Of a stretch of DNA of 64,000 nucleotides, positions 16,844 to 64,000 are shown one piece after another. The DNA comes from Planctomycetota bacterium. GTDB lineage: Bacteria; Planctomycetota; UBA1135; GCA-002686595. Numbering within the stretch: position 1 is the stretch's first letter; every line of letters begins with the position of its first letter. The notes beneath the pieces are model-generated. The model ran no database searches and was not told where the DNA came from. It saw only the letters and a list, made by a program, of their open reading frames with translations. The translations under genes were made by a program, and so were the position numbers. The stretch is taken from the NCBI GenBank assembly GCA_044228975.1, contig JBGATX010000002.1, positions 31,122-95,121 of the forward strand, given 5' to 3'.

Positions 16844-16850
16844 GCGGCGG

Positions 16851-16876: not shown

Positions 16877-16930
16877 ACGCGCGAGGCCACCGCGAGCGCG
16901 TGAGTCCCGGGCCGGCCGGGCGAGGCGCTA

Positions 16931-44341: not shown

Positions 44342-44449
44342 GCGGCGCGGCGCCATTCGTGGCCGTCGATCGCGTTCGGCAGCGAACCTGCCTCGGCTCG
44401 ATCGCACCGCCGGCTCGTACGGATGGGTGTGAACGAGCGACACGAGCGA

Positions 44450-45472
44450 AGCTGACGGGAAAGCGCTTCCCGTCTTCCTGATGGGCAAGGCCCGCTGGTC
44501 GACCGCCGGCGGGCCTGCTTCTTGGATAGGCGCCCGTCCAGCGTTGCTGCCTGCCTCCGACAGAAACCCCGACTTTCCGCGATCGGGGGCTAGGTTGCCC
44601 CGGCTCCGTGGCCCGCAGTCATCGAACTGCGCTGGGGACAAACTCTTCTCGAAGCCGTCAGCCCGCTGGGTCATACCCTGCGGGCTGATGGTGTTTCCGG
44701 GCCGGCTGCCGGCGACGTGCCGCCTGGCGTAGAACCTCCCGACACGAGTCGCAGATCGATCGTTCGGAGCGCCGCGGCTCACCGGCTCGATCGGTCGCAG
44801 CCAAGTGCTGCGCTGGGGATCCGAGAAACTCTTCTCGACGCTGCGAGCCCGCTGACCTCTTGGTCGGCGGGCTCGTCTTTCGTCGCGAGCTGTGGGATGC
44901 GGTGGCCCGCGCGAACGAGTTCGGGACGACGCGTTCGGAGTCGACTTCGAGGCGGCTGTGGATCGCGCAGCTGCGAGCTGCGCTGGGGATCCAAGAACTC
45001 TTCTCGATGCCACGAGGCCCGCTGGACTGCCTGCCAGCGGGCTTCGCGTTTCGTCGGGACGCGGCGTGCGGCCACGGATCGTCCAACGAAGTCGAGCTCC
45101 GTGCTCCGCGACGAAACTGCGACGCCGAGCGAATCGCCGCGTTCGGGAGACTCGAAGACGCGGCTGTGGATCGTGCAGCTGCGAGCTGCGCTGGGGATCC
45201 AAGAACTCTTCTCGATGCCACGAGGCCCGCTGGACTGCCTGCCAGCGGGCTTCGCGTTTCGTCGGGACGCGGCGTGCGGCCTGGATCATCCAACGAAGTC
45301 GAGCTCCGTGCTCCGCGACGAAACTGCGACGCCGACGAATCGCCGCGTTCGGGAGACTCGAAGACGCGGCTGTGGATCGTGCAGCTGCGAGCTGCGCGCT
45401 GGGGATCCAAGAACTCTTCTCGATGCCACGAGGCCCGCTGGACTGCCTGCCAGCGGGCTTCGCGTTTCGTCA
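44450..45472. repeat. tandem array of five to six 170-208-bp units, each with a conserved core and a GC-rich hairpin
   Basis: CTGCGCTGGGGA at 44627, 44808, 44978, 45186 and (with a GC insertion) 45392. Hairpins begin at 44488, 44659, 44845, 45017, 45225 and 45433. Units starting at 44953, 45161 and 45367 are near-identical. The same peptide strings repeat in several track frames, as expected for non-coding repeats. Confidence 0.9.
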
Positions 45473-48400
45473 GGCACCGCGGCGACGGTCGAACATCGCG
45501 CGACGCCGGGCGAGCGCTTCATCCCGTACCTGCGTGCGCTCGACGGTCTGACGCTGCAGGTTCCCGTCGTCCGCACCGTCGTGCAGGAACGCCGCGAGCG
45601 CACGCACCGTCGGGAACCGGAAGAGATCGGTGATCGAAACCTGCCGTCCGCACGTGCGCTTCAGCCGACCCTGCACCTGCACGGTCAGCAACGAGTGCCC
45701 GCCGAGATCGAAGAAGTTGTCGTCGCGGCCGACATTCGGCGTCTGCAGCACCTCGCTCCAGATGCCGGCGATCGCCGCCTCGAGCTCGCCCTGCGGCGGT
45801 TGGACTTCGCCGCGCACGAGGGCGCGTGACTCCTCGGGCGCGGGAAGTGACTTGCGATCGATCTTGCCGTTGGGCGTGAGCGGCAGCGCGTCGAGCACGA
45901 CGATGGGTCCTGCAGCATGAACTCCGGCAACCGCGCGCGAAGGTGCGTGCGCAGCGCCTCGACGTCGATAGGCGCCGTTCCGCGCGGTGTGACGTAGCCG
46001 ACGAGCCGGCGGTCGCCGGGCGCGTCCTCGCGCACGATGGCCGCCGAGTCGCGCACCGATGCGACCTCGCGCAGCGCCGATTCGATCTCGCCGAGCTCGA
46101 TGCGATAGCCGCGCAATTTGATCTGGTGGTCCGCGCGACCGAGGTAGTCGATCGCGCCGTCCTCGCGCAGGCGGACGACGTCGCCGGTGCGGTAGAGGCG
46201 TGCATCGGGGGCGCCGCGGAATGGGTCGGCGACGAAGCGCTCGTTCGTGAGTTCCGCCCGCTGCCAGTATCCGCGCGCGACGCCGGCACCGCCGATGTAG
46301 AGTTCGCCGGGAACACCGATCGGCACTGGCTTCATGCGCGCGTCGAGCACGTAGAGCTCCGTGTTCGCGATCGGCGTGCCGATCGGAACGGAGTGCTCGC
46401 CGCCGTCCACGCGCCAGGTCGACGACCAGATCGTCGTCTCGGTCGGTCCGTACATGTTGAGCAGCGTGCCCGCGAAACTGCGCCGCAGCTCGTTCGCCAG
46501 CGGCGGCGGGAACGCCTCGCCACCGATCATGAGCACACGCAGCCCGCGCAGCGCATTGGCCGCGCGCTCGTCGGCCAGGATCAGCGACGCCATCGAAGGC
46601 GTGCACTGCAGGTGCGTGACGCCGTAGCGCTCGATCAGCGAGGGGATCGACGCCTCCTCGCTGCGCGAGGCACGACGGACGACACGCCGGCGGAGCTCGT
46701 CGAGCAGCTCGAGGCGCTGCAGCACGAGCTCGGAATCGACTCCGAAGTCGATCAGGCACGCGATCTCGTCGACACCGACGTCCTCGAGTCGCTCGACCAT
46801 CCGCATGCAGGTCTCGGGCGTGCCGAAGAGCCCGCTCGTGCGGAAGTAGCGCTCGAACGCGTTGTCGAGCAGAGCCTCGACGTCGTCGCTCGACAGGTCG
46901 CGGAAGTCGTTGCTGACCTCCTGCGCCTCGCCACCACGCTGCGTCTTGAACGTGGGGAACGACGCCACGAAGTCGCGCACCAGTCCCACCGACGTGCGCA
47001 GGTACTCGCGCATCGGACGGCGCACGGTGCGGCGCACTTCCTCGTCGTCGTGACCGACGAACGTGTGCAGCATGATCGTGACGCGCCCTTGCTCGGGCCC
47101 GTGACCGTGTGCCGTCCAGGCATCGCGATAGGCGCGGATCTTCTCGTGCAGTTCCTCGACGGTCTGCCCCAGCAGGTGCGTCAGCACGTTCGCGCCGAGC
47201 TCGCCTGCGGCGCGCCACGTCTCGACGTTGCCCGCGGTCGTGATCCACACGGGCAGCTTCTTCTGGATGGGGCGCGGCAGCGTGCGCACCGAGACCTTGC
47301 GGCCGTCGGCGGCCTCGCACTCGACCGCCTCTCCGCTCCACAACCTGCGCAACGTCGCCAGGCCCTCGACCAGCAGCTCCTTGCGCCGGGCGTAGTTCTG
47401 CGGCGCGAGCACGAAGTCGTTCGGTTGCCAACCTGACGCGAGAGCGATCCCGACGCGGCCGCGCGAGAGGTTGTCGACGAGCGACCACTCCTCGGCGACG
47501 CGCAACGGATGATGCAATGGGAGGACGACGCTGCCGGCGCGGATCGCGATGCGATCGGTGATCGCGGCGATCGCAGCCGACGCGACGGCGGGATTGGGAT
47601 ACAGGCCGCCGAAGGCGTGGAAGTGCCGCTCCGGAGTCCACACGGCTTCGAAGCCGTGCCGATCGGCGAAGCGCGCGCCCTCCAGCAGCAGACGGTACTT
47701 GTCGCTGGCGCGTTCGCCTTCGTCGCTGGCGAAGTAGAAGAGGCTGAACGACGTCGCGCGCCTGCCGCTCGCGCTCGAGGACGCCGCGGGGCGCTTGCGA
47801 TCGTCGCCGGTGTAGATCACGACCTCGAAGCCGCGCGTGAGCGTCCAGAGCAGCTCGAGCACCGAGATGTCGAACGACAGGCTCGTCACCGCGAGCCACG
47901 TGCCGCGTTCCGTGCCGACGCGTTCGTCCATGCCGACGAAGAAGTTGACCACGTTGCGGTGCTCGACCATCACGCCCTTGGGGCGGCCGGTCGAGCCCGA
48001 CGTGTAGATCACGTAGGCGAGGTTCGCGGGCTCGATGGAGCGCGCGACACGCGTCGCGCTCTCGTGCGCGATCGAATCCCACTCGACGTCGACGCGGATC
48101 GTTGGCACGCCGGCGGAAGCGACGAGGCTCGCCAGATGATCCTGCGTGAGCACCACTCGCGCCTGTGCGTCGTGCAGCTGGTACGCGATGCGCTCGCGCG
48201 GGTAGGTCGGATCGAGCGGCACGTACGCGCCACCGGCCTTGTGGATGGCGAGCACGCCGACCAGCAGGTCGATCGAGCGTTCCATGCACAGCCCCACGAG
48301 CACGTCGGGACCGACGCCGAGGCTGCGCAGCCGCGCCGCGAGCCGGTTGGCGCGCTGATCGAGCTCGCGATACCCGATCTCGTTCGCGCCGCAGACGAGC

Positions 48401-49838
48401 GCGCGTCGGGCGTGCGGTCGGCCTGCGCCTCGAACAGATCGGAGATGCACGCGTCGCGCGGCACGACGGTGCGAGTGCGATTCCACTCGACGAGCATCTG
48501 CTCGCGCTCGGGCGGCGTGAGCAGCTCGATCGAGTCGAGCCGACGTTGGGGCTCGCTCGCGAAGCCCTCGAGGATCGCGCTCAGGTGCCCGAGCAGGCGT
48601 TGCGCAGATGCGTCGGCGATGCGGCGCCGATCCCAGTCCAGGCGCAGGAGCAGCTCCGTTTCGGCATAGGCGTACAAGCTGAGCGCGAAGACCGTCTTCT
48701 CGTGGAGCCGGAATCGTCGAGTCGGGCCGGCGATGCCCAGTTGCGCCAGCTCCGCATCGAGAGCTTGCGTATCGAACACGAGCACGGTGTCGAAGAGCGT
48801 GCGTCCGGCGGCGAGGCGGCAGACGCGCTGGATGTCGACCAGCGGCGTGTGCTCGAAGGGCCGCAGCTCGACCTGCTGCTTGCGGAGCAACGCCAGCCAG
48901 TCCGCCACTCGCGCGTCACCCGCGACGTGTACGCGCAACGGCAGCGTGTTGATGAACACGCCGACGATCGCATCGGCGTCGGCGACACTCGAGCGCCGGC
49001 CGGCGCGCACGCAGCCGTACACGACGTCCTCTTCGCCGCAATAGCGCGCGACGAGCAATGCCCACGCACCCTGGACGACCGTGTTCATCGTCACGCCGCA
49101 TTGCGTGGCAAGTTCACGCAGCCGCGTCGTCGAGGCGCGCGTCAGGCGCATCTCGATCTCGTCGCGATCACGCTGCTCTCCGACCGCGCCGGGTTCCGGC
49201 GCCGGGAGCTGCAGCGTGTTGGGATTCCCGAAACCGTGCAGACGCGCCCGCCAGAAGGCGTCGTCGCCGCTCGTGTCGCGTTGGCGCAGCCAGTCGACGT
49301 GCTCGCGGAAGGAGCGAGACGGTGCGAGCTCCAGCTTGCGCCCGGCGCGCAGCGCGTCGTAGCGCGTGAAGACGTCCTTCAACACGGCGGCGAAGGAGCG
49401 TCCGTCGAGCAGCACGTGATGGAACGTCCAGACCAGCGTCCACGCGCTCTCCGAGCGCTGGATCCAGGCGAATCGCATCACCGGAGCACGCGCGAAGTCG
49501 AGCGGCCGGGCGCGATCGGCCTCGAGCCACTCCTTCGTGCGCGCCGCATGTCGGTCGAACGGGAACTCGCGCCAATCGAGCACCGCGAAGTCGAGGGCGA
49601 CCGTCTCGTGCACCTCCTGCAGCGGCTCGGAAAGTCCTTCCCAGCGAAACGCCGTGCGCAGAGCGCCATGGCACGCGACCGTCTGGCGCCAGGCTTCCTC
49701 CAGCGCCTCGCGCGCGAGCGGCTCGTCGAGCTCGCACACGATCTGCTCGACGTCGACGCCGGTGTGTCCACCCGTCAAATGGTGGAACAACATCCCCTGT
49801 TGCATCGGGGACAGGGGAAATGCGTCGGAGACGGTCAT
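45470..49838 (-). pseudogene. NRPS module C-A(luciferase-like monooxygenase insert)-PCP, interrupted by two frameshifts
   Basis: Spread over three minus-strand frames (track ORFs 48009..51200, 45685..48486, 45470..48289). ATG 49838 MTVSDAFPLSPMQQGMLFHH, C domain HHVLLDGRS, A domain LAYVIYTSGSTGRPKG and SLSFDISV, monooxygenase insert FSLFYFASDE...WTPERHFHAFGG, then NMYGPTETT, GELYIGGAGVARGY, YRTGD, LRGYRIELGEIE, LPLTPNGKIDRK, and PCP FFDLGGHSLL. The frame changes near 48400 and 45910. Confidence 0.85.
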
Positions 49839-50074
49839 CGGGGAGCCGGGTGCGCGGCACGGCACGCCACGCAGAGGAGACGCCGGGTGCCGCGCAAGCC
49901 GCGCGCGTTCCACCGGGGCGGTGGATGCGCGAACGCAGTCGGAGCACCGAGCCTCGAAAGATAGCAGGCGCGCGAGCACGCGGCCACGCGCGAACGGAGA
50001 CGAGCGGATCGGCTCGACGGCGGACCGTTCGGCGAGTGCGGCGCGCGCGAGCAGCACGCCATCGCTTCCGAGCG

Positions 50075-50848
50075 TCAGCGCAGCGGTGAGTGCGGATCCG
50101 GCCAGATCGACGTCGTGAATCCGACCTCGCGCGCTCGCAGCGCGACGGCGCCTGCAAATCCTTCCGCCGGATCGAAGTCGACGAGGCTCCAGCTCGCGCC
50201 GTCGCCTTCCTCGCGCTCGACGCGCGGCGAACCGCGCGCGCCGTCGCCGACGACCGTGATCGCGCGCAACGAGCGGCTGATGCCCTCGCCCGTGGCCTTG
50301 AGCAGCGCTTCCTTGCGCGTCCAGATGCGGTAGAACGCGTTCACGCGAGCTCCGTCGGTGAATTCGAGGCACCACGCGAGCTCGCGGGGCGAGAGCACGC
50401 GCTCCATCAGTGAATCGAAGTCGCGCGAGGCGTGCGCGCGCTCGACATCGACTCCGAGCGGGGCCATGCGCGTCACGGCGACGGCGACCAGCGGGCCGGA
50501 GTCCGACAAACTGAAATGCAGGCCAGAACCCGGCAGGAACGGCTTGCCGCGCTCCTCGAGCTCGTAGTGGAACGAGCGCGGATCGACGCGCAATTGCGCG
50601 GCGAGGATCTCGCGCAGGATGCCGCGGCCGGCGCGGAAGCGTCGTGCGAGCTCGTCGCGCTTGAAACGTGCCGCGCGCTCGCGTTCCGTGTCGTCGAGCA
50701 GGGCCTCGAGCTCGCCTTGGCGCTCGCGAGGCACATCGCGCGAAGCCCACCACACGTGCACGTCGCGCTCGCCGCCCTCGCCCAGTGGCATGACGTGCCG
50801 CGCGGCCGATCCACGCAGGACGAGCGGCGCTTCGGATGCGGGTTTCAT
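50075..50848 (-). CDS. Sfp-type 4'-phosphopantetheinyl transferase
   Basis: ATG 50848 within track ORF 50075..51574, 257 aa. FSLSDSG, GVDVE, WTRKEALLKATG. The start overlaps the upstream stop (ATGA). Confidence 0.85.
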   Translation of the reverse strand: MKPASEAPLVLRGSAARHVMPLGEGGERDVHVWWASRDVPRERQGELEALLDDTERERAARFKRDELARRFRAGRGILREILAAQLRVDPRSFHYELEERGKPFLPGSGLHFSLSDSGPLVAVAVTRMAPLGVDVERAHASRDFDSLMERVLSPRELAWCLEFTDGARVNAFYRIWTRKEALLKATGEGISRSLRAITVVGDGARGSPRVEREEGDGASWSLVDFDPAEGFAGAVALRAREVGFTTSIWPDPHSPLR

Positions 50849-51666
50849 GCTCGCGGAGCTCCACTGCGCGCCCGACGCAGGCCGCGCCACGCGCAACCGA
50901 CGAGCAGCGCGGCGGCGAACGGCAGACCGTCGACGAGATACCGCCGCGCGAGACGGCGCGGTTCCTGCGCGAGCCGATGCAGCCACTCCAGCCCGAGCCT
51001 CTGCATCCAACGCGGAGCGCGTGCGACGCGTCCGGCGACGAAGCTGAAGCTGATGCCGATGCCGATCCACCACGCGCGCGGGAGCTGCGAGCGCAGCTGC
51101 GCGATGAGCTGCTCCTGCTTGGGCGAGCCGAGAGCGACGAGCACGAGGTCTGCGCCGCTGCGCGCGAGACCGGCAGAGATCTCCGCGAGCGCGCGCGCAT
51201 CGCGTTCGAACCCCGGCGCGGGACAGTGGATCCCGGCGATGCGCAGCGCTGCGAAGCGCTGGCGCAGGACGCGCGCGGCTTCCTCGGCCGTGCCGGGATC
51301 TCCGCCGAGCAGGTAGACGCCGCGGCCCGCGTGCGCGGCGCGCCCGGAGAGGCTCCAGATCAGGTTCGATCCGGCCACGCGCTCGGGCAGCGGTGTGCCT
51401 TGCAGGCGCGCGGCCCACAAGAGCGGCATGCCGTCGGCGACGCGCAGCTCCGCACCGGCGCACAACGAACGGAAGTCCGCATCGCGCGTCAGGCGGCGCA
51501 GGTGATCGAGGTTGGGCGTGACGATCCAGCCGCCGCGCCCCGCGTCGAGCTCGTCGAACACGTGCTCGACGCACGCGCGTTCGCTCAGCGCGTGGATCGA
51601 GATGCCGCGCAGCAGGATCTCGGGCACTCGCGCCGGCTGACGCAGCGTTTCAGACGGCGAGACCAC
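50845..51666 (-). CDS. WecB/TagA/CpsF-family (GT26) glycosyltransferase
   Basis: VTPNLDHL, ADGMPLLWAAR, YLLGG, LGSPKQE, RAPRWMQRLGLEWLHRL. GTG at 51666 (alternative GTG 51627). Confidence 0.85.
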   Translation of the reverse strand: MVSPSETLRQPARVPEILLRGISIHALSERACVEHVFDELDAGRGGWIVTPNLDHLRRLTRDADFRSLCAGAELRVADGMPLLWAARLQGTPLPERVAGSNLIWSLSGRAAHAGRGVYLLGGDPGTAEEAARVLRQRFAALRIAGIHCPAPGFERDARALAEISAGLARSGADLVLVALGSPKQEQLIAQLRSQLPRAWWIGIGISFSFVAGRVARAPRWMQRLGLEWLHRLAQEPRRLARRYLVDGLPFAAALLVGCAWRGLRRARSGAPRA

Positions 51667-52606
51667 GCGTGCGCGCCTCCTCGGAGCGCGTCGGCGACCA
51701 GCGCGCGGCCCCGCTGCGATCGAGCTCCTCCGTTGCGCGGCGTTTGCCCTTCCACAAGCATCGCCACTGGTACTTCCGCAGGAAACGCCGGAACTCCGCG
51801 TCGCCGTAGCGCGCGCGTCCTGCGAGCGCCGCGCGCAGCCAGCCGAAGACCATCGCGGCGCTGCCGAGGATCGCGGGAGCTTCGAACACGCGGCGCAGTG
51901 CGCTCGCGGCGAGATACACGAAGCCCGTGCCCATGAAATGCTGCCCGCTGCCGTGGCGCGCGCGGCCGCGCAGGATGTTCGCGTCGCTCGAGCCCATCGC
52001 GCGCAAGTGCAGGAAGCGCAGCTCGGGCTCGTCGAGCTCGCGCGATCCAGCCGAGCATGCGGCAGCGATGGCAGTCGATGCCGTCCACATGACCTCGCGC
52101 ACGAAGCCGCCGATCTGCTCGAAGCACGCGCGGCGGTAGAGCTTCGTCATGCCGACCGACATCTCGTCGCCGCACAGCTCGGGCACCGACTCACCGCCCT
52201 CGACCGGGCGATACGGCTTGCCGCTCACGGTGCCCATTCGCGGCTCGCTCCGCATGCGCTCGAGCAGGAGCTCGAAGTAGCGCGGCGGCAGCTCGAGATC
52301 GAGGTCGAGCTTGCAGAGGAACTCGAACTCGCAGAGCTCGACCGTCTCGAGACCGGCATAGAACGCGTCGATGACGCCCGGACCGACGCTGCGCCGGCCA
52401 CGGTCCTCGCGGCGCACGATGCGGATCCAGTCGTGCGCACGCGCGTATTCGGCCAGGATGCGCGGCGTCTCGTCGCTCGAGCCGTCGTCGACGATCACCC
52501 AGAGATCGGGGCGAACGCTCTGGCGCACGACGCTCTCGAGCGTGCGGCGCGCGAACGCGGCCTCGTCGCGGCACGGCGTGATCGCTACCAGGCGCGAACC
52601 GTTCAC
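51650..52606 (-). CDS. GT2-family glycosyltransferase carrying a compensated -1/+1 indel pair
   Basis: GTG 52606 overlaps the asnB stop (GTGA). VAITPCRDEA, VIVDDGSSDET, CKLDLDLELPP, RFLHLRAMGSS. The conserved segment DGIDCHRCRMLGWIA is only readable in another frame (track ORF 51585..52175) between about 52087 and 52036. Confidence 0.75.
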   Translation of the reverse strand: MNGSRLVAITPCRDEAAFARRTLESVVRQSVRPDLWVIVDDGSSDETPRILAEYARAHDWIRIVRREDRGRRSVGPGVIDAFYAGLETVELCEFEFLCKLDLDLELPPRYFELLLERMRSEPRMGTVSGKPYRPVEGGESVPELCGDEMSVGMTKLYRRACFEQIGGFVREVMWTASTAIAAACSAGSRELDEPELRFLHLRAMGSSDANILRGRARHGSGQHFMGTGFVYLAASALRRVFEAPAILGSAAMVFGWLRAALAGRARYGDAEFRRFLRKYQWRCLWKGKRRATEELDRSGAARWSPTRSEEARTRGLAV

Positions 52607-54549
52607 AGGCTCACCGCGTGCCTTTGACACCACGAGATCAACGCGAACGGGGCCCAGATGCGCGACCAGTACAGCCCCGGACAGCCCGCGAGATACGCGT
52701 CGAAGAGCTGCGTCAACGCCTTCGATTCCAGCCCCACCGCGGCGCACGCATGACGATCGGCGAAGGTCGCCGCGATGCGCCGCGAGAGATGCGCGCGGCA
52801 CCAGCGCTCGATCGGGAGCACGAAACCGGACTTTGGACGGTCGAACAGCGCCGGATCGAGTCCTTCGAGGCCGATCTCGCGCAGGCAGCGCTTCGTCCCG
52901 AGCGGCTCGAAGCGCGCGCGCTCGTCGAGCGCCGCCGCCGCCTCGACGACGCGGTGGTCGACGAGCGGCACGCGCACTTCGAGCGACACCGCCATCGAGG
53001 CCGCGTCCGTGTCGCGCAAGAGCCGCTGGCCGAGGAACGAGTGCAGCTCGAGCGTCGAGATCGCGTGCAGGTCGGGCGCGTCCGCGATCCACGCTTCGAG
53101 CTGCGCGCGCAGCTCTGGATCGATGCCGTAGCGCACGTGCAGGTCGCCGAGAGCGGGCGCGATGCGCTCGAGGAACGCGCGCGTGTAGAGCGCGTACGAG
53201 ACCTGGTAGAGCTCGACCCACGAGCCGTCGGTCGAGAGCAGGTCGTCGAGCTTGCCCCAGCGCGTCTGCGGCGGCACGTCGGCGTTGCGCGGTCCGCGCC
53301 GCACGCCAGTGTGCGCCAGTGAGCGCGCCGCGCGGCGCACGAGCGACTGCGGCAGCGCGGAGCTCAGACGCTGCGCCCGGCGCGCGCGCGGGAGGTCGCG
53401 AAAGCTCCTGTAGCCGCCGAAGAGCTCGTCGCCGCCGGTCCCGGCGAGCGCGACGGTCACGCCCGCGCGGCGCACGGCGCGGCTCACGAACCAGGTGTTC
53501 AACGCGTCGAAGCTCGGCTGGTCGAGCGCGCCGAGCGCGTCGTCGAGCCCTTCGGCGAAGGCGCGCTCGTCGAGCCGGATCTCCTCGTGACGCGTGCCCA
53601 GCGCCTGCGCGACAGCGCGCGCGTGCACCGACTCGTCGAACCGCGCCTCCGCGAAGCCGACGTTGAACGTGCGGACATCTCGCGCTCCCGAGCGCACGGC
53701 GAGGCTCGCAATCGCGCTCGAATCGATGCCGCCGGAGAGGAACACGCCGACGGGCACGTCGCTCACGAGGTGCTGGCGCACGGTCTCGAGCAGCGTTGCG
53801 CGCAGCTCCTCGCGCGAGCCGTCCGTCCTCGCGGCCGGCAGGCGCCAGTAGCGCTTGGGCTTCACCTCCGCGCTCGCCGTGTCGACGATCGCGTAGCAGC
53901 CCGGCTGGAGCTCGCGAACGCCTTCGACGATCGACTGCGAGCCGAGCACGAAACCGTTCCAGAGGCAGGTCGAGAGCGCGCCGCGGTCGATGCGGTTCGA
54001 GACGCGGCCGCTCGCGAGGAGAGCGCGCACCTCGGACGCGAACAGCAGAGCGTGGCCTTCCTGCGTGAAGACGGTCGCGTAGTAGAGCGGCTTGATGCCG
54101 AGACGATCGCGCGCGAGCACGACGGCGCGGCGGCGCGCGTCGTAGATCGCGAAGGCGAACATGCCGCGCAGCCGTCCGAGGCAGGCTTCGCCGAAGCGGC
54201 CCCACGCACGCAGCAGGACCTCCGTGTCGGAACGGCTCTTCAGCGTTTCGCCGGCGTCTTCGAGCTCGCGGCGCAGCTCGGCGTGGTTGTAGATCTCGCC
54301 GTTGAACACGATCACGTTGCCGGTTGCGGCGTCGCGCATCGGCTGGTCGCCGTCAGCCGTGAGGTCGAGGATCGCGAGGCGCCGGAAGGCGAAGCACGCG
54401 CCGAGACCGCCCAGTCCGGCGGCGGTCGGGGGCGAACTCCACTCGCCGCTCGAATCGGGCCCGCGGTGCACCTGGGCTCCGCTCATCGTCGCGACGACGC
54501 GCCGCAGCTCGTCGTCGACCGCTCCGATGGCTCCCGCGATTCCGCACAT
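52603..54549 (-). CDS. asnB: asparagine synthase (glutamine-hydrolysing), EPS-locus type
   Basis: ATG 54549 gives MCGIAG (N-terminal nucleophile Cys), NGEIYN, and SGGIDSS PP-loop. 648 aa. Confidence 0.9.
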   Translation of the reverse strand: MCGIAGAIGAVDDELRRVVATMSGAQVHRGPDSSGEWSSPPTAAGLGGLGACFAFRRLAILDLTADGDQPMRDAATGNVIVFNGEIYNHAELRRELEDAGETLKSRSDTEVLLRAWGRFGEACLGRLRGMFAFAIYDARRRAVVLARDRLGIKPLYYATVFTQEGHALLFASEVRALLASGRVSNRIDRGALSTCLWNGFVLGSQSIVEGVRELQPGCYAIVDTASAEVKPKRYWRLPAARTDGSREELRATLLETVRQHLVSDVPVGVFLSGGIDSSAIASLAVRSGARDVRTFNVGFAEARFDESVHARAVAQALGTRHEEIRLDERAFAEGLDDALGALDQPSFDALNTWFVSRAVRRAGVTVALAGTGGDELFGGYRSFRDLPRARRAQRLSSALPQSLVRRAARSLAHTGVRRGPRNADVPPQTRWGKLDDLLSTDGSWVELYQVSYALYTRAFLERIAPALGDLHVRYGIDPELRAQLEAWIADAPDLHAISTLELHSFLGQRLLRDTDAASMAVSLEVRVPLVDHRVVEAAAALDERARFEPLGTKRCLREIGLEGLDPALFDRPKSGFVLPIERWCRAHLSRRIAATFADRHACAAVGLESKALTQLFDAYLAGCPGLYWSRIWAPFALISWCQRHAVSL

Positions 54550-54563
54550 GATCGGTTCCCGCT

Positions 54564-55829
54564 CTAGTTCCCGCGACGCGCGGCGATGGGGGACCAGGTG
54601 TTGAGCGCGTCGGCCACGGCGCGATGACCGCTCGCGTTCCAGTGCGTGTCGCCGGGGAACCACGGGATCTCGCCGCGCGCGGCGCACGCGCGCAAGGCGT
54701 CGGTGAGGTCGAGACACGCGACGTGCTCGCGCTCGGCCCACGCGCGCACGTGCTCGGGGACGGGGCTCAGCTGCGCGGCCAGGTCGCGCAGCGGTGAATC
54801 GGCGGAGAACTCGCACAACGGTCCGAGCACGCGCAGCTTGCTCGGCAGGATCGCGACGGCGTACTCGCCTCCGGCGGCGCGCACGCGATCACGTACGTCG
54901 GCCAGTGCCGCGGTCACGTGCGGCAGCTCGCCTTCGAGGCCGGCCCACGAGCTCTTGACCCAGCCGAAGCGATACTCGACGTCGCCGATGCGTCCCGTGC
55001 GCAGCGGCGCGTACGCCGGATGCGGTTGCGTCAGGCGCTGCGCGCGCAGGATGAGCTGGTTGAGCAGCGTGCGTTCGCCGAGCGAGCGCTGCTCCGTCGC
55101 CGGCGCGTGGCCCTCGTGCTTCGCGCGGTAGGAGGCCGAATCGAGCAGATCGTTGCCTTCGAAGACGAACTGCACGACCAGGCGCCCTTCGAGCGGCAGC
55201 CTGGAATCGCGCAGCAGGTCGCGCTCGGCTTGCACCGAGAGCCCGATGAGCGCGACGTTCATCACCGGACGGCCGAGGCGCTGCTCGAGCTGCGCGCACA
55301 GCGTCTGCTCGAACGGCACGAGCGCGGCGACGAGGAACGAATCGCCGAGCAGGTACACGTCCGCGCTCTCGCGATCGAGGCCGTTGCGGAAGCCGTGGCG
55401 GTCGGTCGCGTAGTCGAACGGGATCTCCGCGCACGGATAACCCCAGCTCTGCGCGAGGTCCTCGCGCGTCGTCCCGCTCGTGTGCATGTTCGGCACGGCC
55501 TGCGTGCCGAGCTCCGAGAGCTCCGCGGGCCCGGCGTAGTCCGACCAGTCGAGGACGTAGAGTCCCGCGGCCTCGACGAGCAGCCAGGTGAAGGCGAGCA
55601 CTCCGTTCACGAGCGCGAAGCGCACCAGCGCGCGCTTCGAGACGCTCGCGACGAAGCACGCGCACGCGATCCAGACGAAGAAGAGCGCGATCGCGACCGA
55701 ACGAGTGCGCCACACGCCGAAGAACTGCCGTGCGTGGCCTTCCATCACCGGCGGCGACGTCGAGAGCGCGAGCCACGCGGCGGCGAGCACGACGAGCGCG
55801 AGCGCGGCCCAACGCAGGCGGCGCTTCAT
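54564..55829 (-). CDS. membrane-anchored SGNH/GDSL-family hydrolase or O-acyltransferase (AlgX/AlgJ-like)
   Basis: ATG 55829 within track ORF 54564..55997. N-terminal TM helices, block I YLLGDSF, block III FEGNDL, block V GDTHWN. Starts 1 nt after the upstream stop. Confidence 0.65.
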   Translation of the reverse strand: MKRRLRWAALALVVLAAAWLALSTSPPVMEGHARQFFGVWRTRSVAIALFFVWIACACFVASVSKRALVRFALVNGVLAFTWLLVEAAGLYVLDWSDYAGPAELSELGTQAVPNMHTSGTTREDLAQSWGYPCAEIPFDYATDRHGFRNGLDRESADVYLLGDSFLVAALVPFEQTLCAQLEQRLGRPVMNVALIGLSVQAERDLLRDSRLPLEGRLVVQFVFEGNDLLDSASYRAKHEGHAPATEQRSLGERTLLNQLILRAQRLTQPHPAYAPLRTGRIGDVEYRFGWVKSSWAGLEGELPHVTAALADVRDRVRAAGGEYAVAILPSKLRVLGPLCEFSADSPLRDLAAQLSPVPEHVRAWAEREHVACLDLTDALRACAARGEIPWFPGDTHWNASGHRAVADALNTWSPIAARRGN

Positions 55830-55830
55830 C

Positions 55831-57444
55831 TCAGCCGTCCTTCCTGCGCAGCACCGCGAGGTTGAGCACCGGGTCGCGCACGAGCACGTCGAAGCGCGCC
55901 AGGTACTGCGGATCGGTCGTGAAATCGGGCTGGCGCATCCAGTCGACGAGGTAGCGGATCGGCTTGCCGAGCACGTAGCTCGGCACCGCATCCGCATTGC
56001 GCGCGACGAAAGCCTCGGGGTTCACCTTGCCGTCGAGGTTGATCGTGCGGTCGTGGAAGTAGCCGACGGTGCCCGTCTGGAACGCCCCGATCCATTCGTC
56101 GTCGCGCACGTTGCGCTCGACCCACTCGACGCACTGGAAGTGCATGTGCTCGTTGCCGTGCCGCCACAGGCGCACGTTCGGATAGAGCACGAGCGCGAGC
56201 AGCGCGAGCGCGGCGCTCATACGCGCCGCCGGCCGCAGCGCGACCGGCATCCGTTCGAGCACTTCGAGCGCCGCGGCGGCCCACAGGAGCGCGAGCGGCG
56301 CCGCGAGCGGGAAGAGATAGCGCGTCAGGAAGTACGGCACGCCGAAGAAGAGCCCGTAGTACCCGCACAGGCCGAGCGCGTACACGACGAACACCGCGAC
56401 GAACGCGAAGCGCCGAGCGTCGCCGCGTCGCGCTGCGCGCAACGCGAGCGCGAGCGCACCGAGCGCGAGAAGCGCACCAGCGACGACGACCATCGGATGG
56501 CGCTCGAGCGCGAGCGGGATCGGCACCACCGCCAGCGCGTACTCGCTCAAGCTCGCCGGCAGCTGCGCGAGGTTCGACCCGAACCCCTCCGCGAACGAGG
56601 CTTCCGCGCGGCCGCTGACCGGCACGATGCTCCCGAAACGCACGTGGTTGAAGATCAGCCACGGAGAAGCGACGGCGATCGAAGCCAGACCGGCGAGACA
56701 CGCCTCGACGAGGCTCGCGCGCGCGAGCTGCAAGCGTCTTGCCGGTCCGAGCAGCGCGCGCAGCACGCACACCGCCGCGATCAGGAACACGGCGTCGTTG
56801 CGCACCCAGAAGAGGACCCCGAGCGCCGCGCCGAGCCCGAGCGCGCGACGCACGCCCCAACGCTCGAAGGGATCGCCGCTCCTGCCGAGCAGCGCGTGCA
56901 GGAAGAGCATCACCCCGACGGCGTACGCGCCGGTCTCGAGGCAGTTCATCGTGTGCATCACGCCGAGCACGCTCGCGAACCACACCCCGCAGGCGAGCGC
57001 CGCCGTGGCCCGCGCCCCTTCGCCGAGCGCGCGCAGCGCCGTCGCGTACACGACCCAGGCGCCGGCGCAGGCGACGAGGAGCTCGAAGACGAGCGCGAAC
57101 ACCACGCCCGCGATGCGATCACCGCCGGCGAGCCAATGGCCCGCCGCGAAGACGAAGGAGATCAGGGGCTGCGTGCCATTCGTCGCGATCGTGCCGTCGG
57201 CCGTGCTCAGCCCGTGACCGAGCGCCAGATTGCGCGCGATCGTGAGCATCAGATAGCCGTCCTCGCTCGGGAACTGTCGCAGCAGCCGCTGCTCGCCGGC
57301 GAGCAGCGGAGCGACGCGCGCGAGCAGACCGATCGCGAGCAGCGCCGCGGCGAGCAGCCACACGCCGCGCAGCGATGCATGCGCCCCGGCATGCCGCGCC
57401 TGCGCGACCTGCGCGCGCGCGTGTGTGCCCATCGGTTCGCTCAT
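55831..57444 (-). CDS. GT-C-fold polytopic membrane glycosyltransferase (ArnT/PMT-like)
   Basis: 537 aa with more than 10 predicted TM helices, a first-loop acidic motif (SEDGYLMLTIARNLALGHG), and a soluble C-terminal domain. First gene of the minus-strand operon. Confidence 0.7.
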   Translation of the reverse strand: MSEPMGTHARAQVAQARHAGAHASLRGVWLLAAALLAIGLLARVAPLLAGEQRLLRQFPSEDGYLMLTIARNLALGHGLSTADGTIATNGTQPLISFVFAAGHWLAGGDRIAGVVFALVFELLVACAGAWVVYATALRALGEGARATAALACGVWFASVLGVMHTMNCLETGAYAVGVMLFLHALLGRSGDPFERWGVRRALGLGAALGVLFWVRNDAVFLIAAVCVLRALLGPARRLQLARASLVEACLAGLASIAVASPWLIFNHVRFGSIVPVSGRAEASFAEGFGSNLAQLPASLSEYALAVVPIPLALERHPMVVVAGALLALGALALALRAARRGDARRFAFVAVFVVYALGLCGYYGLFFGVPYFLTRYLFPLAAPLALLWAAAALEVLERMPVALRPAARMSAALALLALVLYPNVRLWRHGNEHMHFQCVEWVERNVRDDEWIGAFQTGTVGYFHDRTINLDGKVNPEAFVARNADAVPSYVLGKPIRYLVDWMRQPDFTTDPQYLARFDVLVRDPVLNLAVLRRKDG

Positions 57445-57831
57445 GGCTGCGAGAAGGAGCCGGCCTGCGAAGCTCGCGTCCGGGACGGGAACCCGTGGGC
57501 ATGGCAGTCGACGTTACAAGGTACGTCGCTCGGCGACGAGCCGCCAACCCGCGCTCCGTGGTACTCGCGCCGAGGAACGTACGCGCGTGCATTTATTTCT
57601 CGGCGCGCGCACGACGACCTCGGAGGGATGCGTGAGCGTCGTTCGCCGACGACGCGTGTCGCAGCGCGCAGCCGCGCTGCTTGGCCCGAGCGTTCGCAAC
57701 GCGGTACGCTCACGGTGAAGTCGCGGAGCCGCACGGGATGCGACGGGCGACGCCATGCGCCCGATGCCCCCTCCCCGAGTCCGCCGCGGTTGCGTTCGCG
57801 ACGTGCCGCCGGCGGACGCACGCGCTGAGTC

Positions 57832-60800
57832 ATGAGCCCGTCCTCGAGCCCGGCCAACCCGCCGAGCGGCGTCCCCGCATCGGCTTCGTTCGACGTCGCC
57901 GTCGTCGGGATCGCGCTCCATCTGCCGGGCGCGCGCAACGCGCGGGAGTACTGGAAGAACTTGCGCGGTGGCGTCGAATCCGTGCGCGATCTCACCGACG
58001 AGGAGCTGCTCGCCGCGGGCGTCTCGCGCGAGGCGCTCGCGCAGCCGAACTACGTGCGCCGCTCGGCCGTGCTCGAGGGACTCGCCGACTTCGACGCGGG
58101 CTTCTTCGGCTTCAGTCCGAAGGACGCGGCGATCACGGATCCGCAGCACCGGCGCTTCCTCGAATGCTGCTGGGAAGCGCTCGAGGACGCCGCGCATCCG
58201 CCCGAGAGCTTCGCCGGTCCGATCGGCGTCTTCGCGGGCTCGGGCATGTCGGCCTACATGGCCTTCAACATCCTCTCGAACCGCGAGCTCGTCGATTCGG
58301 TCGGCCTGTTCCTCCTGCGCCACACGGGCAACGACAAGGACTTCCTCACGACGCGCGTCTCGTACTGCCTCGACCTGCAGGGTCCGAGCGTCAACGTGCA
58401 GACGGCGTGCTCGACGTCGCTCGTCGCGGTGCACATGGCGTGTCAGAGCCTGCTCAGCGGCGAGTGCGACATGGCGCTCGCCGGTGGTGTCACGATCACG
58501 CTGCCGCACGGCCGCGGCTACCTCTACCACGAGAACGAGATCCTCGCGGCCGACGGCGTGTGCCGGCCGTTCGACGCGCGCTCGGGCGGCACCGTGTTCA
58601 GCAGCGGAGCGGGTGTCGTCGTGCTGCGCCGACTCTCCGACGCGCTCGCCGACGGCGACCACATCTACGCCGTGATCAAGGGCTCGGCGATCAACAACGA
58701 CGGCGCGCGCAAGGTCGGCTACCTCGCGCCGAGCGTGCCCGGACAGGCGCGCGCGATCGCCGAGGCGCTCGCGGTGTCGGGCGTCGAGCCGCGTTCGATC
58801 GGCTACGTCGAAGCGCACGGCACGGCGACGCCCGTCGGCGATCCGATCGAGATCGCGGCGCTGACGCAGGCCTTCCGCACCGGCACGGACGAGCGCGGCT
58901 TCTGCGCCGTCGGCTCGGTCAAGGGCAACATCGGCCACGCCGACACGGCCGCCGGTGTCGCGAGCTTCATCAAGGTCGCGCTCGCGCTGCAGCATCGCGA
59001 GCTCCCGCCCAGCCTGCACTTCGAGCGCCCCAACCCCGAGATCGACTTCGACGCGAGCCCGTTCTTCGTGAACGCACAGCTGCGCGAGTGGAAAGCGGGT
59101 GCTGAGCCGCGCCGCGCCGGCGTGAGCGCGCTGGGTGTCGGCGGCACGAACGCGCACGTGATCCTCGAGGAGGCGCGATCGATCGCTTCGACGAAGAGCG
59201 CGCGGCCCTTCCAGCTGCTCGTGCTCTCGGCGCGCTCGAGGAACGCGCTGGACGCGGCCTGCGCGAACTTGCGCGCGCATCTGCAGGAGCATCCCGAGCT
59301 GGAATTCGCCGACGTCGCCTGGACGCTGCAAGCCGGTCGGCGCGCCTTTCCCTGGCGCCGCACGCTCGTGTGCCGCGACGCGGCCGACGCGCTGCGCGTG
59401 CTCGGCTCGAGCGAGCGCGCCGACCTCGAGCGCCTGCGCACGCATGACGCGGGCAGCGCGCGCCCGACGCTCGTCTACATGCTGCCCGGCGGTGGCGCGC
59501 AGCACCCGCGCATGGCGCGCGACCTGTACGCGCAAGCGGGCGTCTTCCGGCGCGAGGTCGATCGCTGCCTCGCGCTGCTCGCACCCGAGCTCGCCAGCGC
59601 GATCTTGCGCGCGATCCAGACTCCCGACGGCGAGCTCGAAGCCGTCGCGCGCGAGCTCGAGCGTCCGTCGATCCAGCTCCCGGCACTGTTCGTGATCGAG
59701 TACGCGCTGGCGCGCCAGTGGAGCGAGCTCGGTCTCGAGCCCGCCGCGCTGATCGGTCACAGCATGGGCGAGAACACCGCCGCCTGCCTCGCGGGCGTGA
59801 TCTCGCTCGCCGATGCGCTCGGTCTCGTCGCCTTGCGCGGCCGGCTGTTCGAGCGCGTCGAAACCGGCGCGATGCTCGCGGTGCAACTGCCGGCCGCGGA
59901 GCTCGTGCCCTTGCTCGGTGAAGGTCTGGCGCTCGCCGCGAGCAACGCTCCCGCGCTCTCGGTCGCGTCGGGCACGCGCGCGGGCATCGAGGAGCTCGAG
60001 CGCTCGCTCGGCGCGCGCGGCGTCGAGCACTCGCGCATCCACATCCAGATCGCGGCGCACAGCGCGCTGCTCGAGCCGATCCTGCCCGAGTTCCGCGCCT
60101 ACCTGCAGCGCATCCAGCTCTCGCCGCCGCGCATCCCCTTCGTCTCGAACCTGACCGGCACGTGGATCACGAGCGAGCAGGCCGTCGACGCCGAGTACTG
60201 GGTGCAGCACCTGCGCCGCACCGTGCGCTTCTCCGACGGCGTGCGCACGCTGCTGCAGGATCCCGAGCGCGTGCTGCTCGAGGTCGGGCCGGGCAACACG
60301 CTGTGCTCGCTCGCGCGCGCGCACGGCAACGCGTCGCTCGCGCCGCGCATCGTGCCTTCGCTGCGCCACCGCGACGAAGCGGTCGACGATCGCGCCTTCG
60401 CGCTCGAGGTGCTCGGTCGCCTGTGGCTCGCGGGCTTGAAGCCGAACTGGAGCGCGTTGCACGCCGGCGAGAACCGCCAGCGCGTCTCGCTCCCGACCTA
60501 TCCGTTCGAGCGCCAGCGCTATTGGATCGAGCCCTCGCGCCGCGAGCCCGACGCGAGCGAGCATGCGCGCGGCCTCGAACGGCTCGACGATCTCTCGCGC
60601 TGGTTCCAGCGCCCGGCGTGGCGGCGCGACGACCTCGCCGGCGCGCCCGCGGCCAAGGATCTGCGCTGGCTGCTGTTCGCCGACGCCGGCGGCTTCGCGG
60701 AGGCGCTCGCGGCGCAACTGCGTTCGCAGGGCGCGCGCGTGCTCCTGGCGTTCTCGGGCGAACGCTTCGAGCGCCTCGGCGACGACGTGTACACGCTCTC

Positions 60801-63800: not shown

Positions 63801-64000
63801 CACGCCGGTGCCGCTCGAGCCGCCGCTCTCGCCCGAGAAGCGCATGCGCCTCATGCGCCAGCGTCTCGCGCGCCAGGGCCTGGGCTTCTTCACCGACGCG
63901 CTGCGCCGCAAGCTCGCGCAGAAGCGGCGCGAGCTCCGGCTGCTCGTCAGCAAGCCGATGACGAAGCTGCGTCCGTTCGAGTACGTCACCGAGCGCATCG
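57832..64000 (+). CDS. type I polyketide synthase, single module KS-AT-KR-DH-carrier-TE (3' end beyond the window)
   Basis: Not in the track because it has no stop. In-frame TGA at 57826, then ATG 57832. My translation: KS (TACSTSLVAVH, EAHGTATPVGDP, KGNIGHADTAAG; about 57890-59175), AT (GHSMGE; about 59465-60300), KR (TYLITGGLGGIG at 61381, YAAANAF), DH (HWLLDQHRLADGTAVVPGTGFLEM at about 62125), carrier (DNFFDLGGYSL at about 63270), and TE (GGYSGGG at about 63710). Confidence 0.9.
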   Translation, partial: MSPSSSPANPPSGVPASASFDVAVVGIALHLPGARNAREYWKNLRGGVESVRDLTDEELLAAGVSREALAQPNYVRRSAVLEGLADFDAGFFGFSPKDAAITDPQHRRFLECCWEALEDAAHPPESFAGPIGVFAGSGMSAYMAFNILSNRELVDSVGLFLLRHTGNDKDFLTTRVSYCLDLQGPSVNVQTACSTSLVAVHMACQSLLSGECDMALAGGVTITLPHGRGYLYHENEILAADGVCRPFDARSGGTVFSSGAGVVVLRRLSDALADGDHIYAVIKGSAINNDGARKVGYLAPSVPGQARAIAEALAVSGVEPRSIGYVEAHGTATPVGDPIEIAALTQAFRTGTDERGFCAVGSVKGNIGHADTAAGVASFIKVALALQHRELPPSLHFERPNPEIDFDASPFFVNAQLREWKAGAEPRRAGVSALGVGGTNAHVILEEARSIASTKSARPFQLLVLSARSRNALDAACANLRAHLQEHPELEFADVAWTLQAGRRAFPWRRTLVCRDAADALRVLGSSERADLERLRTHDAGSARPTLVYMLPGGGAQHPRMARDLYAQAGVFRREVDRCLALLAPELASAILRAIQTPDGELEAVARELERPSIQLPALFVIEYALARQWSELGLEPAALIGHSMGENTAACLAGVISLADALGLVALRGRLFERVETGAMLAVQLPAAELVPLLGEGLALAASNAPALSVASGTRAGIEELERSLGARGVEHSRIHIQIAAHSALLEPILPEFRAYLQRIQLSPPRIPFVSNLTGTWITSEQAVDAEYWVQHLRRTVRFSDGVRTLLQDPERVLLEVGPGNTLCSLARAHGNASLAPRIVPSLRHRDEAVDDRAFALEVLGRLWLAGLKPNWSALHAGENRQRVSLPTYPFERQRYWIEPSRREPDASEHARGLERLDDLSRWFQRPAWRRDDLAGAPAAKDLRWLLFADAGGFAEALAAQLRSQGARVLLAFSGERFERLGDDVYTLSPQDAEGYVALLDDLRARELLPERIVHCWMVTHSDATEVTTTFFHWIQEHGFYSLLFLSQALGAVERAAPVHLTVVSNGMQALEGETLAHPAKAVVLGPCLVAPRELERLTCSSVDIDVPIEARARRGRIEIDAQLVLDVAREATAARAGAIVALRRGVRHVQLFEPAPLSAATTNTAPPSVPSANASPIRPRGTYLITGGLGGIGLSIAAHLARTAQARLVLLARAELPPRERWNEWLKRDGDRGAPAGTRRRIRDVLALEELGAEVEVVSADVANVEELRAALARARARFGPLNGVIHAAGTIEDGLIQTRTPASVDRVFTPKVHGTLLLDAELAAEPLDFFVLCSSTSAQLGPAGQVDYAAANAFLDAFAERRSKARPGLTVAIEWGVWQEVGMAARLTSRANATQTDSARELGHALLGERVYESDDEVIFEARFSPRTHWLLDQHRLADGTAVVPGTGFLEMARAAVESFCGASACELRDVSFVAPLAVADDGERSVRVRLRREERGLEFQIASCDEADGGAKRWTLHAQGGARVLETAAPARPVLNGLLDRLERADEAREKAGPQMAHLRFGERWRVLHRAVFGASEALALLELPAAFQGDLDDYALHPALLDLATGFALPLARGSGPSTALYAPIAYGSVRVHRALPRRVLSHVRLASAPQSDAEIAQFDVAISDESGALLVEVQGFTVRRLSGALKLTGANDRRPRAAGDASAHETRPSPLARLVGAGIKPAEGVEAFARVLAARAGPRIVVSSIELAALRAELDGQGSASPSGSSEAQFARPELASSYVAPRDEIERKLAAMWQELLGIDRVGIHDNFFDLGGYSLVAVRLFAQVRRVWKLEFALAVLFEASTIEALAARIRGELGETRAPEHARGPRLPFLVPLHPGKRGTRRPFFLVAGMYGNVMNLRHLAGHLGAEQPLYGIQARGLDGKEEPHATFEEMAADYLKDVRALQPAGPYLIGGYSGGGITAYEMARQLVAAGEKVALLVFLDTPVPLEPPLSPEKRMRLMRQRLARQGLGFFTDALRRKLAQKRRELRLLVSKPMTKLRPFEYVTERI

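Follow-up and report, generated by a model that had tools for sequence, protein, structure and literature searches.

A divergent NRPS–PKS locus joined to glycan enzymes in a planctomycete, in a copy that may be non-functional

We analysed a 64,000-nucleotide stretch of DNA from a Planctomycetota bacterium (GenBank assembly GCA_044228975.1, contig JBGATX010000002.1, positions 31,122–95,121; hereafter the window), in which a minus-strand arm of glycan-type enzymes, a 4′-phosphopantetheinyl transferase (PPTase) and a nonribosomal peptide synthetase (NRPS) module diverges from a plus-strand polyketide synthase (PKS). Synteny supports well that the two arms form one conserved biosynthetic locus and pathway. 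The locus appears to be a hybrid NRPS–PKS cluster joined to glycan enzymes, and the copy in the window may be non-functional. As the product we favour, tentatively and somewhat short of an even chance, a surface glycan that receives an acyl unit made by the NRPS and PKS over a free metabolite. An earlier reading made from the letters alone (the sequence-only reading) had not matched the locus to any described pathway, and we likewise found no match in the literature, of which our coverage is incomplete.

One divergent locus and its relatives

Because the window has a GC content of about 70%, it holds many long spurious open reading frames (ORFs). Reading frames were picked by third-codon-position GC, and genes were named by Pfam and NCBIfam profile searches; both bear out the gene order and domain content that the sequence-only reading had given for the two arms, as follows.

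57832 (ATG)–64000 (window end), plus strand: type I PKS of one module, ketosynthase, acyltransferase, (structural ketoreductase), ketoreductase, dehydratase, carrier and thioesterase, KS-AT-(structural KR)-KR-DH-carrier-TE (Pfam)
57445–57831: divergent intergenic spacer, 387 bp, from which the PKS (plus) and the GT-C arm (minus) diverge
55831–57444, minus strand: GT-C fold membrane glycosyltransferase (GT), ArnT/PMT-like, 537 aa (predicted structure and Foldseek)
54564–55829, minus strand: membrane-anchored SGNH/AlgX-like acyltransferase or esterase, 421 aa (Pfam ALGX, Lipase_GDSL_2)
52603–54549, minus strand: AsnB-type glutamine-dependent amidotransferase, 648 aa, starting MCGI (Pfam GATase_7, Asn_synthase)
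51650–52606, minus strand: GT2 (GT-A fold) glycosyltransferase, 318 aa (Pfam Glycos_transf_2)
50845–51666, minus strand: GT26 glycosyltransferase of the WecG/TagA/CpsF family, 273 aa (Pfam Glyco_tran_WecG)
50075–50848, minus strand: Sfp-type PPTase, 257 aa (Pfam ACPS, AASDHPPT_N)
45470–49838, minus strand: NRPS with a condensation (C) domain, an adenylation (A) domain with an embedded luciferase-like monooxygenase (MOx) and a peptidyl carrier protein (PCP) (Pfam Condensation, AMP-binding, Bac_luciferase, AMP-binding_C, PP-binding)

The junctions are exactly those first proposed, as is the 387-bp spacer: the GT-C and SGNH genes meet as TGA-G-ATG with a 1-nt gap, AsnB and GT2 overlap at GTGA, and GT26 and the PPTase overlap at ATGA. 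A gap of 236 nt lies between the PPTase gene and the NRPS gene.

The full arrangement, with the PKS diverging from GT-C, (SGNH), AsnB, GT2, GT26, PPTase and NRPS genes, recurs in two metagenome contigs from closer relatives, L001 and L002, whose GT-C proteins are 69% (tblastn) or 72% (BLASTP) and 87% identical, respectively, to that of the window. The same arrangement is found in the Planctomycetota metagenome-assembled genomes (MAGs) L003/L008, L004/L009 and L013, at 50–53% GT-C identity; besides the two closer relatives, at least four other Planctomycetota species have it. Synteny kept down to about 50% protein identity points to more than a chance neighbourhood. Another Planctomycetota MAG (L010) has the GT-C, AsnB, GT2, GT26 and NRPS genes in the same order, with no PPTase and no PKS within reach. 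The arrangement also varies in detail: the SGNH gene can sit beyond the PKS beside a polysaccharide export gene (Poly_export is present in L003), and some relatives have an inserted Fic or metallo-β-lactamase-fold gene. On the 3′ side of the PKS, relatives carry a protein of about 220 aa that belongs to no family, another GT2, whose nearest match is MftF, and a methyltransferase of the FkbM family.

Conservation extends to the spacer. In an alignment with the equivalent spacers of L001 and L002, three blocks are identical or nearly so, although the flanking GT-C protein of these relatives is just 69–87% identical:

57700–57717: conserved block CACCGTGAGCGTACCGCG
57589–57601: conserved A-rich block GAGAAATAAATGC
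57512–57524: conserved block GTACCTTGTAACG

These blocks may be regulator or promoter sites; a sigma-70 consensus scan of 44300–58000, spacer included, gave no promoter match.

That an unrelated exopolysaccharide (EPS) operon and a PKS/NRPS cluster lie side by side by chance is an explanation we regard as extremely improbable. It draws on a GT-C profile search, from which 80 genomic loci were fetched and their neighbours within 10 kb viewed: about 60 have no PKS within that distance (cyanobacteria, Beggiatoa relatives and Myxococcota among them), and most GT-C homologues, such as L005–L007, stand in ordinary polysaccharide or unrelated contexts. Three observations oppose it, namely the position of the PPTase gene between GT26 and the NRPS, in the same operon and with overlapping codons, the retention of the whole arrangement at about 50% protein identity, and the recurrence of the association, rearranged, in other phyla. 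About a dozen of the 80 loci have a PKS and/or an NRPS within 10 kb, including loci from Rhodobacteraceae, Burkholderiales and an Enterobacterales MAG.

A search from the NRPS side returned more than 100 distinct C-A(MOx)-PCP proteins of about 1,460 aa, at 50–62% identity. These stand-alone relatives come from Planctomycetota, Burkholderiaceae, Gemmatimonadaceae, Myxococcota, Gammaproteobacteria, Binatia and an actinobacterial family. We viewed five contexts:

L088/L089, Gemmatimonadaceae: PPTase, NRPS, TE-less PKS, a further C-A-PCP module and two hydrolases
L090, Pseudomonadales (Gammaproteobacteria): NRPS followed by PKS (with TE), two GT2, SGNH, methyltransferase, acyltransferase_3
L091, unclassified metagenome contig: PKS diverging from AsnB-GT2-GT26-NRPS
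L092, Gammaproteobacteria: NRPS followed by PKS, two hydrolases, AsnB, GT4, SGNH
L083, Rhodobacter kunshanensis HX-7-19, cultured (NZ_JAALFE010000015.1, about 1–21500): PKS, formyltransferase (F)-A(Gly,MOx)-PCP, EntD-type PPTase, GT-C

Across these contexts the invariant core is the glycine A(MOx)-PCP module plus the PKS, with glycan-type genes usually adjacent in this sample. In Rhodobacter the F domain takes the place of the NRPS C domain, and the locus also holds a UbiA-HAD fusion beside the GT-C gene, an MsbA-like ATP-binding cassette (ABC) transporter, a Wzy_C/O-antigen-ligase-like gene, GT2 genes and a methyltransferase. The sequence-only reading had held that the two arms belong together and had made this depend on EPS-type and PKS/NRPS genes co-occurring in relatives. 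They do: in the same order in Planctomycetota, and rearranged in Gammaproteobacteria (L090 and L092), in the metagenome contig L091 and, with GT-C and envelope-glycan genes, in Rhodobacter.

The glycan arm

The GT-C protein has no Pfam match and is just 10–18% identical to solved GT-C enzymes. Its AlphaFold (AF2) model has a predicted local distance difference test (pLDDT) score of 88 and a predicted TM-score (pTM) of 0.88, and the best PDB fold matches found by Foldseek are ArnT (5f15, TM 0.57, probability 1.0), AglB, PglB and AftB. An alignment of homologues places an invariant acidic pair, E61-D62, directly after the first transmembrane helix, and the C-terminal soluble domain is conserved, with the motif NLDGKVNP. 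The GT-C label of the sequence-only reading holds because of this high-confidence fold and the invariant Glu-Asp pair. The modelled protein thus resembles ArnT/PMT enzymes in fold, in its multiple transmembrane helices and in the acidic pair after the first of them; unlike them, it falls in no Pfam family.

The adjacent SGNH protein, likewise correctly described at the outset as membrane-anchored, has about three N-terminal hydrophobic helices (residues 4–29, 42–69 and 67–90) followed by GDSF and DTHW motifs. It matches PF16822 with 42.1 bits against a cut-off of 26.5, and the combination of anchor and domain is that of AlgX/AlgJ proteins, from which its activity is predicted. Among specific NCBIfam models, AsnB comes nearest to the XrtA/PEP-CTERM amidotransferase TIGR03108, with 404.7 bits against a cut-off of 816.9; lasso-peptide and macrolactam cyclase models are also among its matches. 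GT26 scores 198 bits with PF03808 and, above the cut-off of 69, 154 with TIGR00696; its best specific NCBIfam match is EpsA. The best specific NCBIfam matches of the glycan genes are to EPS families, all below cut-off.

GT2 has no hydrophobic segment and only weak EPS-type NCBIfam matches, among which an ArnC/GtrB-type model is absent. We considered GT2 as an ArnC/GtrB-like polyprenyl-phosphate sugar synthase feeding the GT-C enzyme and rejected the idea on these two grounds; its PDB matches, to chondroitin synthase and GalT1, are weak as well. The PPTase matches PF01648 with 72.8 bits (cut-off 25) and PF22624 with 24.5 bits, below the cut-off, and has the two halves of an Sfp-type enzyme. Its best NCBIfam model is HetI, at 138.5 against a cut-off of 370, so by that rule it is not a HetI orthologue.

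The NRPS, its frameshifts and the PKS

The sequence-only reading had described a C-A(monooxygenase)-PCP NRPS module. The domains are as described, the protein starting with a C domain and lacking a release domain. The coding sequence is not a single ORF: it lies in three frames separated by two frameshifts that had been overlooked. Glycine specificity, an order from NRPS to PKS and further cluster genes beyond the PKS were likewise absent from that reading. The parts are these:

48402–49838, minus strand: part 1, C domain with HHVLLDG intact, ATG at 49838 (Pfam Condensation, 272 bits; tblastn to residues 2–482 of L004)
48405/48406, minus strand: frameshift 1, a 4-nt deletion in a short (GC)n run of the C-A linker/A1 region (blastn against L002 and L001, both in frame)
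45913–48402, minus strand: part 2, A domain with a flavin mononucleotide (FMN)-dependent luciferase-like monooxygenase between A4 and A5 (Pfam; TIGR04020)
45905–45912, minus strand: frameshift 2, by 1 nt, immediately ahead of the A10 motif (three-frame translation against L004)
45470–45901, minus strand: part 3, last stretch of the A domain with A10 (PNGKIDR), then PCP (GGHSL) (Pfam PP-binding; tblastn to residues 1317–1442 of L004)

The frame of part 1 stays open past the first frameshift, down to 48009. By tblastn the intact L004 homologue (1464 aa) is collinear with the three frames (49844–48402, 48402–45913 and 45901–45524), with no gaps in the L004 sequence; with the frames joined, the window protein would have about 1,452 aa, and homologues encode a single protein of about 1,460 aa. 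Neither Pfam nor tblastn found a release domain or TE after the PCP.

The NRPS copy is either very recently inactivated or mis-assembled. We see about an even chance that the pathway is defunct in this genome, with the NRPS a recent pseudogene. This would account for two independent frameshifts within one 4.4-kb gene when the rest of the 64-kb window holds at most one other candidate frame switch, and for a 4-nt deletion, which is untypical of a homopolymer read error. The public annotation of an identical sequence (P0131, on a 131,732-bp NCBI contig) also splits the gene, giving a 921-aa A(MOx) fragment 100% identical to window 45685–48450. P0131 almost certainly comes from the same assembly, so the shared break gives no independent confirmation. 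On the other side, all three pieces keep a third-position GC of about 0.9 and none of their motifs is damaged, which makes any inactivation very recent. The contig is moreover of metagenome type, in which an assembly or polishing error in a GC-rich repeat is possible, and the sole near-identical sequence found (P0001, 98%) spans the GT-C gene alone. A generally error-ridden assembly is a possible but unsupported source of the frameshifts, the rest of the window offering at most that one further switch.

Within the A(MOx) piece, Pfam places AMP-binding at 22–234, Bac_luciferase at 255–574 and then AMP-binding again. Motif A3 reads LAYVIYTSGSTGRPKG, A4 (FDISV) stands before the insert and A5 (NMYGPTE) after it. 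The embedded monooxygenase, of about 350 aa, belongs to the MupA/Atu3671 family (TIGR04020, 535 bits against a cut-off of 244). Read by motif position, the specificity code of the A domain is DILQMGMIWK, and DILQ[LM]G[ML][IV]WK or a close variant is found in 86 of 86 family members (85 stand-alone homologues and the Rhodobacter F-domain variant). This type of code, which we take to be a glycine code, makes the A domain one of glycine type as judged by its residues.

By PDB sequence matches the C domain comes closest to those of McyB, PvdL, TycB and SrfA-C, with the starter-type RzmA domain far behind; these solved relatives do not make its donor predictable. At 945–3302 the L090 locus holds genes for a separate carrier protein, an acyl-CoA-dehydrogenase-like protein and a protein like class-II tRNA synthetases (a faint tRNA-synt_2b match). 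This trio resembles amino acid:carrier-protein ligase systems, and it might supply the C-domain donor in L090.

As first reported, the PKS has its own TE and continues past the window end, which leaves out about its last 100 aa (2056 aa are visible, against 2165 aa in the L001 homologue). Its KS carries TACSTS with the catalytic Cys and two His; its KR carries TGGLGGIG, the catalytic Tyr and a B-type-like Asp (IED); and its DH carries His and Asp. The carrier motif, GGYSL, is PCP-like (GG[YH]SL), and the TE motif is GYSGG. The AT has GHSMG and IAAHS, the latter close to the IAFH/HAFH malonyl type (compare PMC3908369). The catalytic residues of KS, AT, KR, DH, carrier and TE are conserved in six homologues from three phyla (seven sequences with the window). 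Because the KR (1184–1384) precedes the DH (1408–1690), the module departs from the usual cis-AT order KS-AT-DH-KR-ACP.

The KS-AT region resembles those of modular cis-AT or hybrid PKSs, with PDB matches to 7zma, 8xju, CurL and DEBS. The second-best match, 8xju, is deposited just as 'Polyketide synthase', in a series that also has ClbC and a peptide synthetase. A long lipid anchor as the PKS product was considered and downgraded, given this modular-type KS-AT, the single module with a TE and the formyltransferase that replaces the C domain in one relative.

Proposed pathway, alternatives and wider meaning

In the pathway we propose, whose chemical steps are all deduced from domain content, the NRPS would act as the loading module, with glycine loaded on the PCP and N-acylated there by the C domain, or N-formylated by the F domain in the Rhodobacter variant. 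The embedded monooxygenase would probably hydroxylate the glycine α-carbon, by analogy with MtaG and MelG. The KS would accept the N-capped glycyl unit and one malonate would be added, and the B-type KR and the DH would then give an α,β-unsaturated enoyl thioester, an N-capped 4-amino(-4-hydroxy)but-2-enoyl unit, for the TE to release or transfer. In the cytoplasm, GT26 and GT2 would build the polyprenol-linked glycan to which this product would be coupled. The carboxylate amidated by AsnB would belong either to a uronic acid or to the PKS product, and transfer and acylation would fall to the GT-C and membrane-anchored SGNH/AlgX-like enzymes at the outer face of the membrane. The end product would be a cell-surface glycan with an unusual acyl substituent. 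The F-domain variant suggests that the N-cap is a small blocking group and not necessarily a long fatty acid, so the expected product would be a small N-capped unit and not a lipid; this weakens the version of the product as a lipid anchor or glycolipid.

The order from NRPS to PKS is likely because in L088, L090 and L092 the NRPS lies directly before the PKS with touching or overlapping ends (NRPS end and PKS start both at 11356 in L088, at 14401 and 14398 in L090, and at 14398 and 14395 in L092). The opposite order has a precedent in the MtaG and MelG proteins of myxothiazol and melithiazol, whose terminal C-A-MOX-A-T-TE module condenses glycine, for which α-hydroxylation is proposed, and yields a terminal amide (PMC11411415). 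Compared by description, the window NRPS likewise has a C domain, an A domain split by a luciferase-like monooxygenase, a PCP and a glycine-type code. Unlike MtaG and MelG, it has no TE, collinear relatives place the module before the PKS, as a starter and not a terminator, and one relative (L083) has an F domain for the C domain. From its domains it appears partly MtaG-like and not a functional member of that group, since it has two of the defining features and lacks the third, a terminal module with a TE.

We accordingly consider it unlikely that the PKS, possibly iterating, makes an acyl chain to which C-A(Gly,MOx)-PCP adds and hydroxylates glycine, releasing a primary amide. The module type and its glycine code speak for this order, and in the window itself the genes are divergent, so that their order does not give the direction. 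It is opposed by the TE being on the PKS and not on the NRPS, by the position of the NRPS directly before the PKS in the three relatives above, and by the F-A(MOx)-PCP variant, which is possible just as a starter module. L088 adds to this a further C-A-PCP module that follows the PKS.

GT26 enzymes use undecaprenyl-PP-GlcNAc as substrate. GT-C enzymes and AlgX-like SGNH enzymes with a membrane anchor work outside the cytoplasmic membrane, where their donors are polyprenol-linked and their acceptors are polymers. These known sites and substrates are why we favour a surface glycan, and they make such enzymes an odd choice for tailoring a cytoplasmic thioester product.

Such tailoring is what a free secreted molecule would require. 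Under that alternative, to which we give a clearly smaller but appreciable chance, the NRPS and PKS make an N-acyl-glycine-derived unsaturated acid, a butenolide or a lipo-amino acid, and the GTs, AsnB and SGNH enzyme convert it to a glycosylated natural product or glycolipid. Some relatives fit it. The carrier-protein core occurs in L088/L089 with no glycan-synthesis genes within reach, and the second GT2, which relatives carry beside the PKS, has as its nearest match MftF, whose substrate for glycosylation is a small molecule. AsnB homologues also serve in natural-product amidation and lactam formation, as the lasso-peptide and macrolactam cyclase matches recall. Genes for N-acyl amino acid synthases (NAS) are described beside PEP-CTERM/exosortase EPS loci, including one in a planctomycete, in a passage of PMC7293339 that cites Craig et al. 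2011 and does not itself show modification of the EPS.

The window shares some features with those exosortase-A systems. Its AsnB has TIGR03108 as best specific match, and the two α/β-hydrolase genes that follow a TE-less PKS, in place of the TE, in L088 (20188–21356) and in L092 (20181–21852) have as their best NCBIfam models TIGR03101 ('hydrolase 2') and TIGR03100 ('hydrolase 1, exosortase A system-associated'), all below cut-off. The hydrolase matches hint at a link between the NRPS–PKS family and the acyl-carrier genes of PEP-CTERM EPS loci. Unlike at the NAS/exosortase loci, the acyl-amino-acid part here would come from an NRPS with PKS extension and not from an NAS, and the window ORFs that were scanned include neither an exosortase nor a PEP-CTERM gene. 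At the level of profile matches this is a resemblance, not membership.

Other systems provide partial parallels. WcbR of Burkholderia and RkpA of Sinorhizobium are single-module type I PKSs among genes for capsular polysaccharide biosynthesis and export (PMC3908369). By description, the window is like them in having a lone type I PKS amid polysaccharide genes; it differs in that its PKS is KS-AT-KR-DH-carrier-TE and is paired with a glycine NRPS, and in that a scan of ORFs adjoining the cluster turned up no ABC-transporter export genes. To our knowledge, the WcbR and RkpA clusters contain no NRPS module. In the F-A-PCP loaders of oxazole polyketides and in the C-A-T-KS-AT-KR-DH proteins of the colibactin ClbN/ClbB type, a KS receives an N-capped amino acid from a PCP, and in ClbB, as in the window PKS, the KR comes before the DH. 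The window differs from these in the monooxygenase of its A domain, in having just two modules and in its setting among glycan genes.

Several findings weigh against a surface glycan made in the proposed way. The L088 locus suggests that the carrier-protein core can work without glycan-synthesis genes. About 60 of the 80 GT-C loci lack a PKS within 10 kb. Within the visible window we found no initiating phosphoglycosyltransferase, flippase or polymerase for the cluster. The C-domain matches are largely of the ordinary elongation type (McyB, TycB and SrfA-C, besides PvdL). The monooxygenase may do something else than in MtaG and MelG, where the module is terminal and has its own TE, neither of which holds here. 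For this copy, finally, the two frameshifts break the NRPS as sequenced. A bolder version, which we consider doubtful, is that the two-module line makes a reactive N-capped 4-amino-4-hydroxy-but-2-enoyl unit, or a breakdown product of it, that is put on or primes a surface glycan on which a new GT-C family acts.

On the low-coordinate side the cluster ends with the NRPS, as indicated by what lies below 45470: first an array of tandem repeats, and after it housekeeping genes (LpoB-like, DUF1425 and MutS). The MutS protein is 78% identical to proteins from Planctomycetota MAGs, and every match that carries an organism name is from Planctomycetota. The other limit lies beyond the window end, off which the PKS runs. 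The repeat has a 208-bp unit (2.6 copies, 96% matches, 44952–45484) and begins within the last NRPS codons, the stop being at 45470–45472; two degenerate copies extend it down to about 44637, for a whole region of 44637–45489. Each full unit bears the hairpin GGCCCGCTGG-ACTGCCTG-CCAGCGGGC, which occurs three times in the region and nowhere else in the window. A 250-aa ORF at 44658–45410 (minus strand) was considered as an extra operon gene and rejected as arising spuriously from this repeat. At 44588–44567 (minus strand) there is a terminator-like hairpin, and an Rfam scan of the window gave no match.

The remaining window genes are also of housekeeping kind. On the minus strand, at 14801–16927 and 15748–16764, third-position GC changes frame at about 16141–16351, which could be a third window frameshift or two overlapping calls; a 708-aa ORF at or beside this switch has a GT1-type glycosyltransferase domain at its C-terminus, and its upstream piece has no Pfam match. 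Two extracytoplasmic function (ECF)-type sigma-factor domains lie at 10700–13747 and 16931–17896 (minus strand), one of them fused to a long C-terminal part that bears CarboxypepD_reg and Ig-like repeats, and a Ser/Thr kinase with TPR repeats (1,437 aa) lies at 17736–22049 (plus strand). Genes of these two kinds are typical of Planctomycetota, and we draw no link from them to the cluster.

The cluster family is widespread in uncultured environmental bacteria and is a target for both natural-product and cell-envelope research. In the NRPS-side contexts that we viewed, this unusual PKS always accompanies the stand-alone C-A(Gly,MOx)-PCP protein. The recurrent linkage to GT-C, GT26, AsnB and SGNH genes suggests a decoration of surface glycans by thiotemplate enzymes, a theme known just from scattered cases, namely the PKSs of capsule loci and the N-acyl amino acid synthases that adjoin exosortase loci. 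The cultured carrier Rhodobacter kunshanensis HX-7-19 makes the family experimentally approachable. If the bolder version is true, these loci would encode a new class of bacterial surface glycoconjugate in Planctomycetota, Proteobacteria and other environmental phyla.

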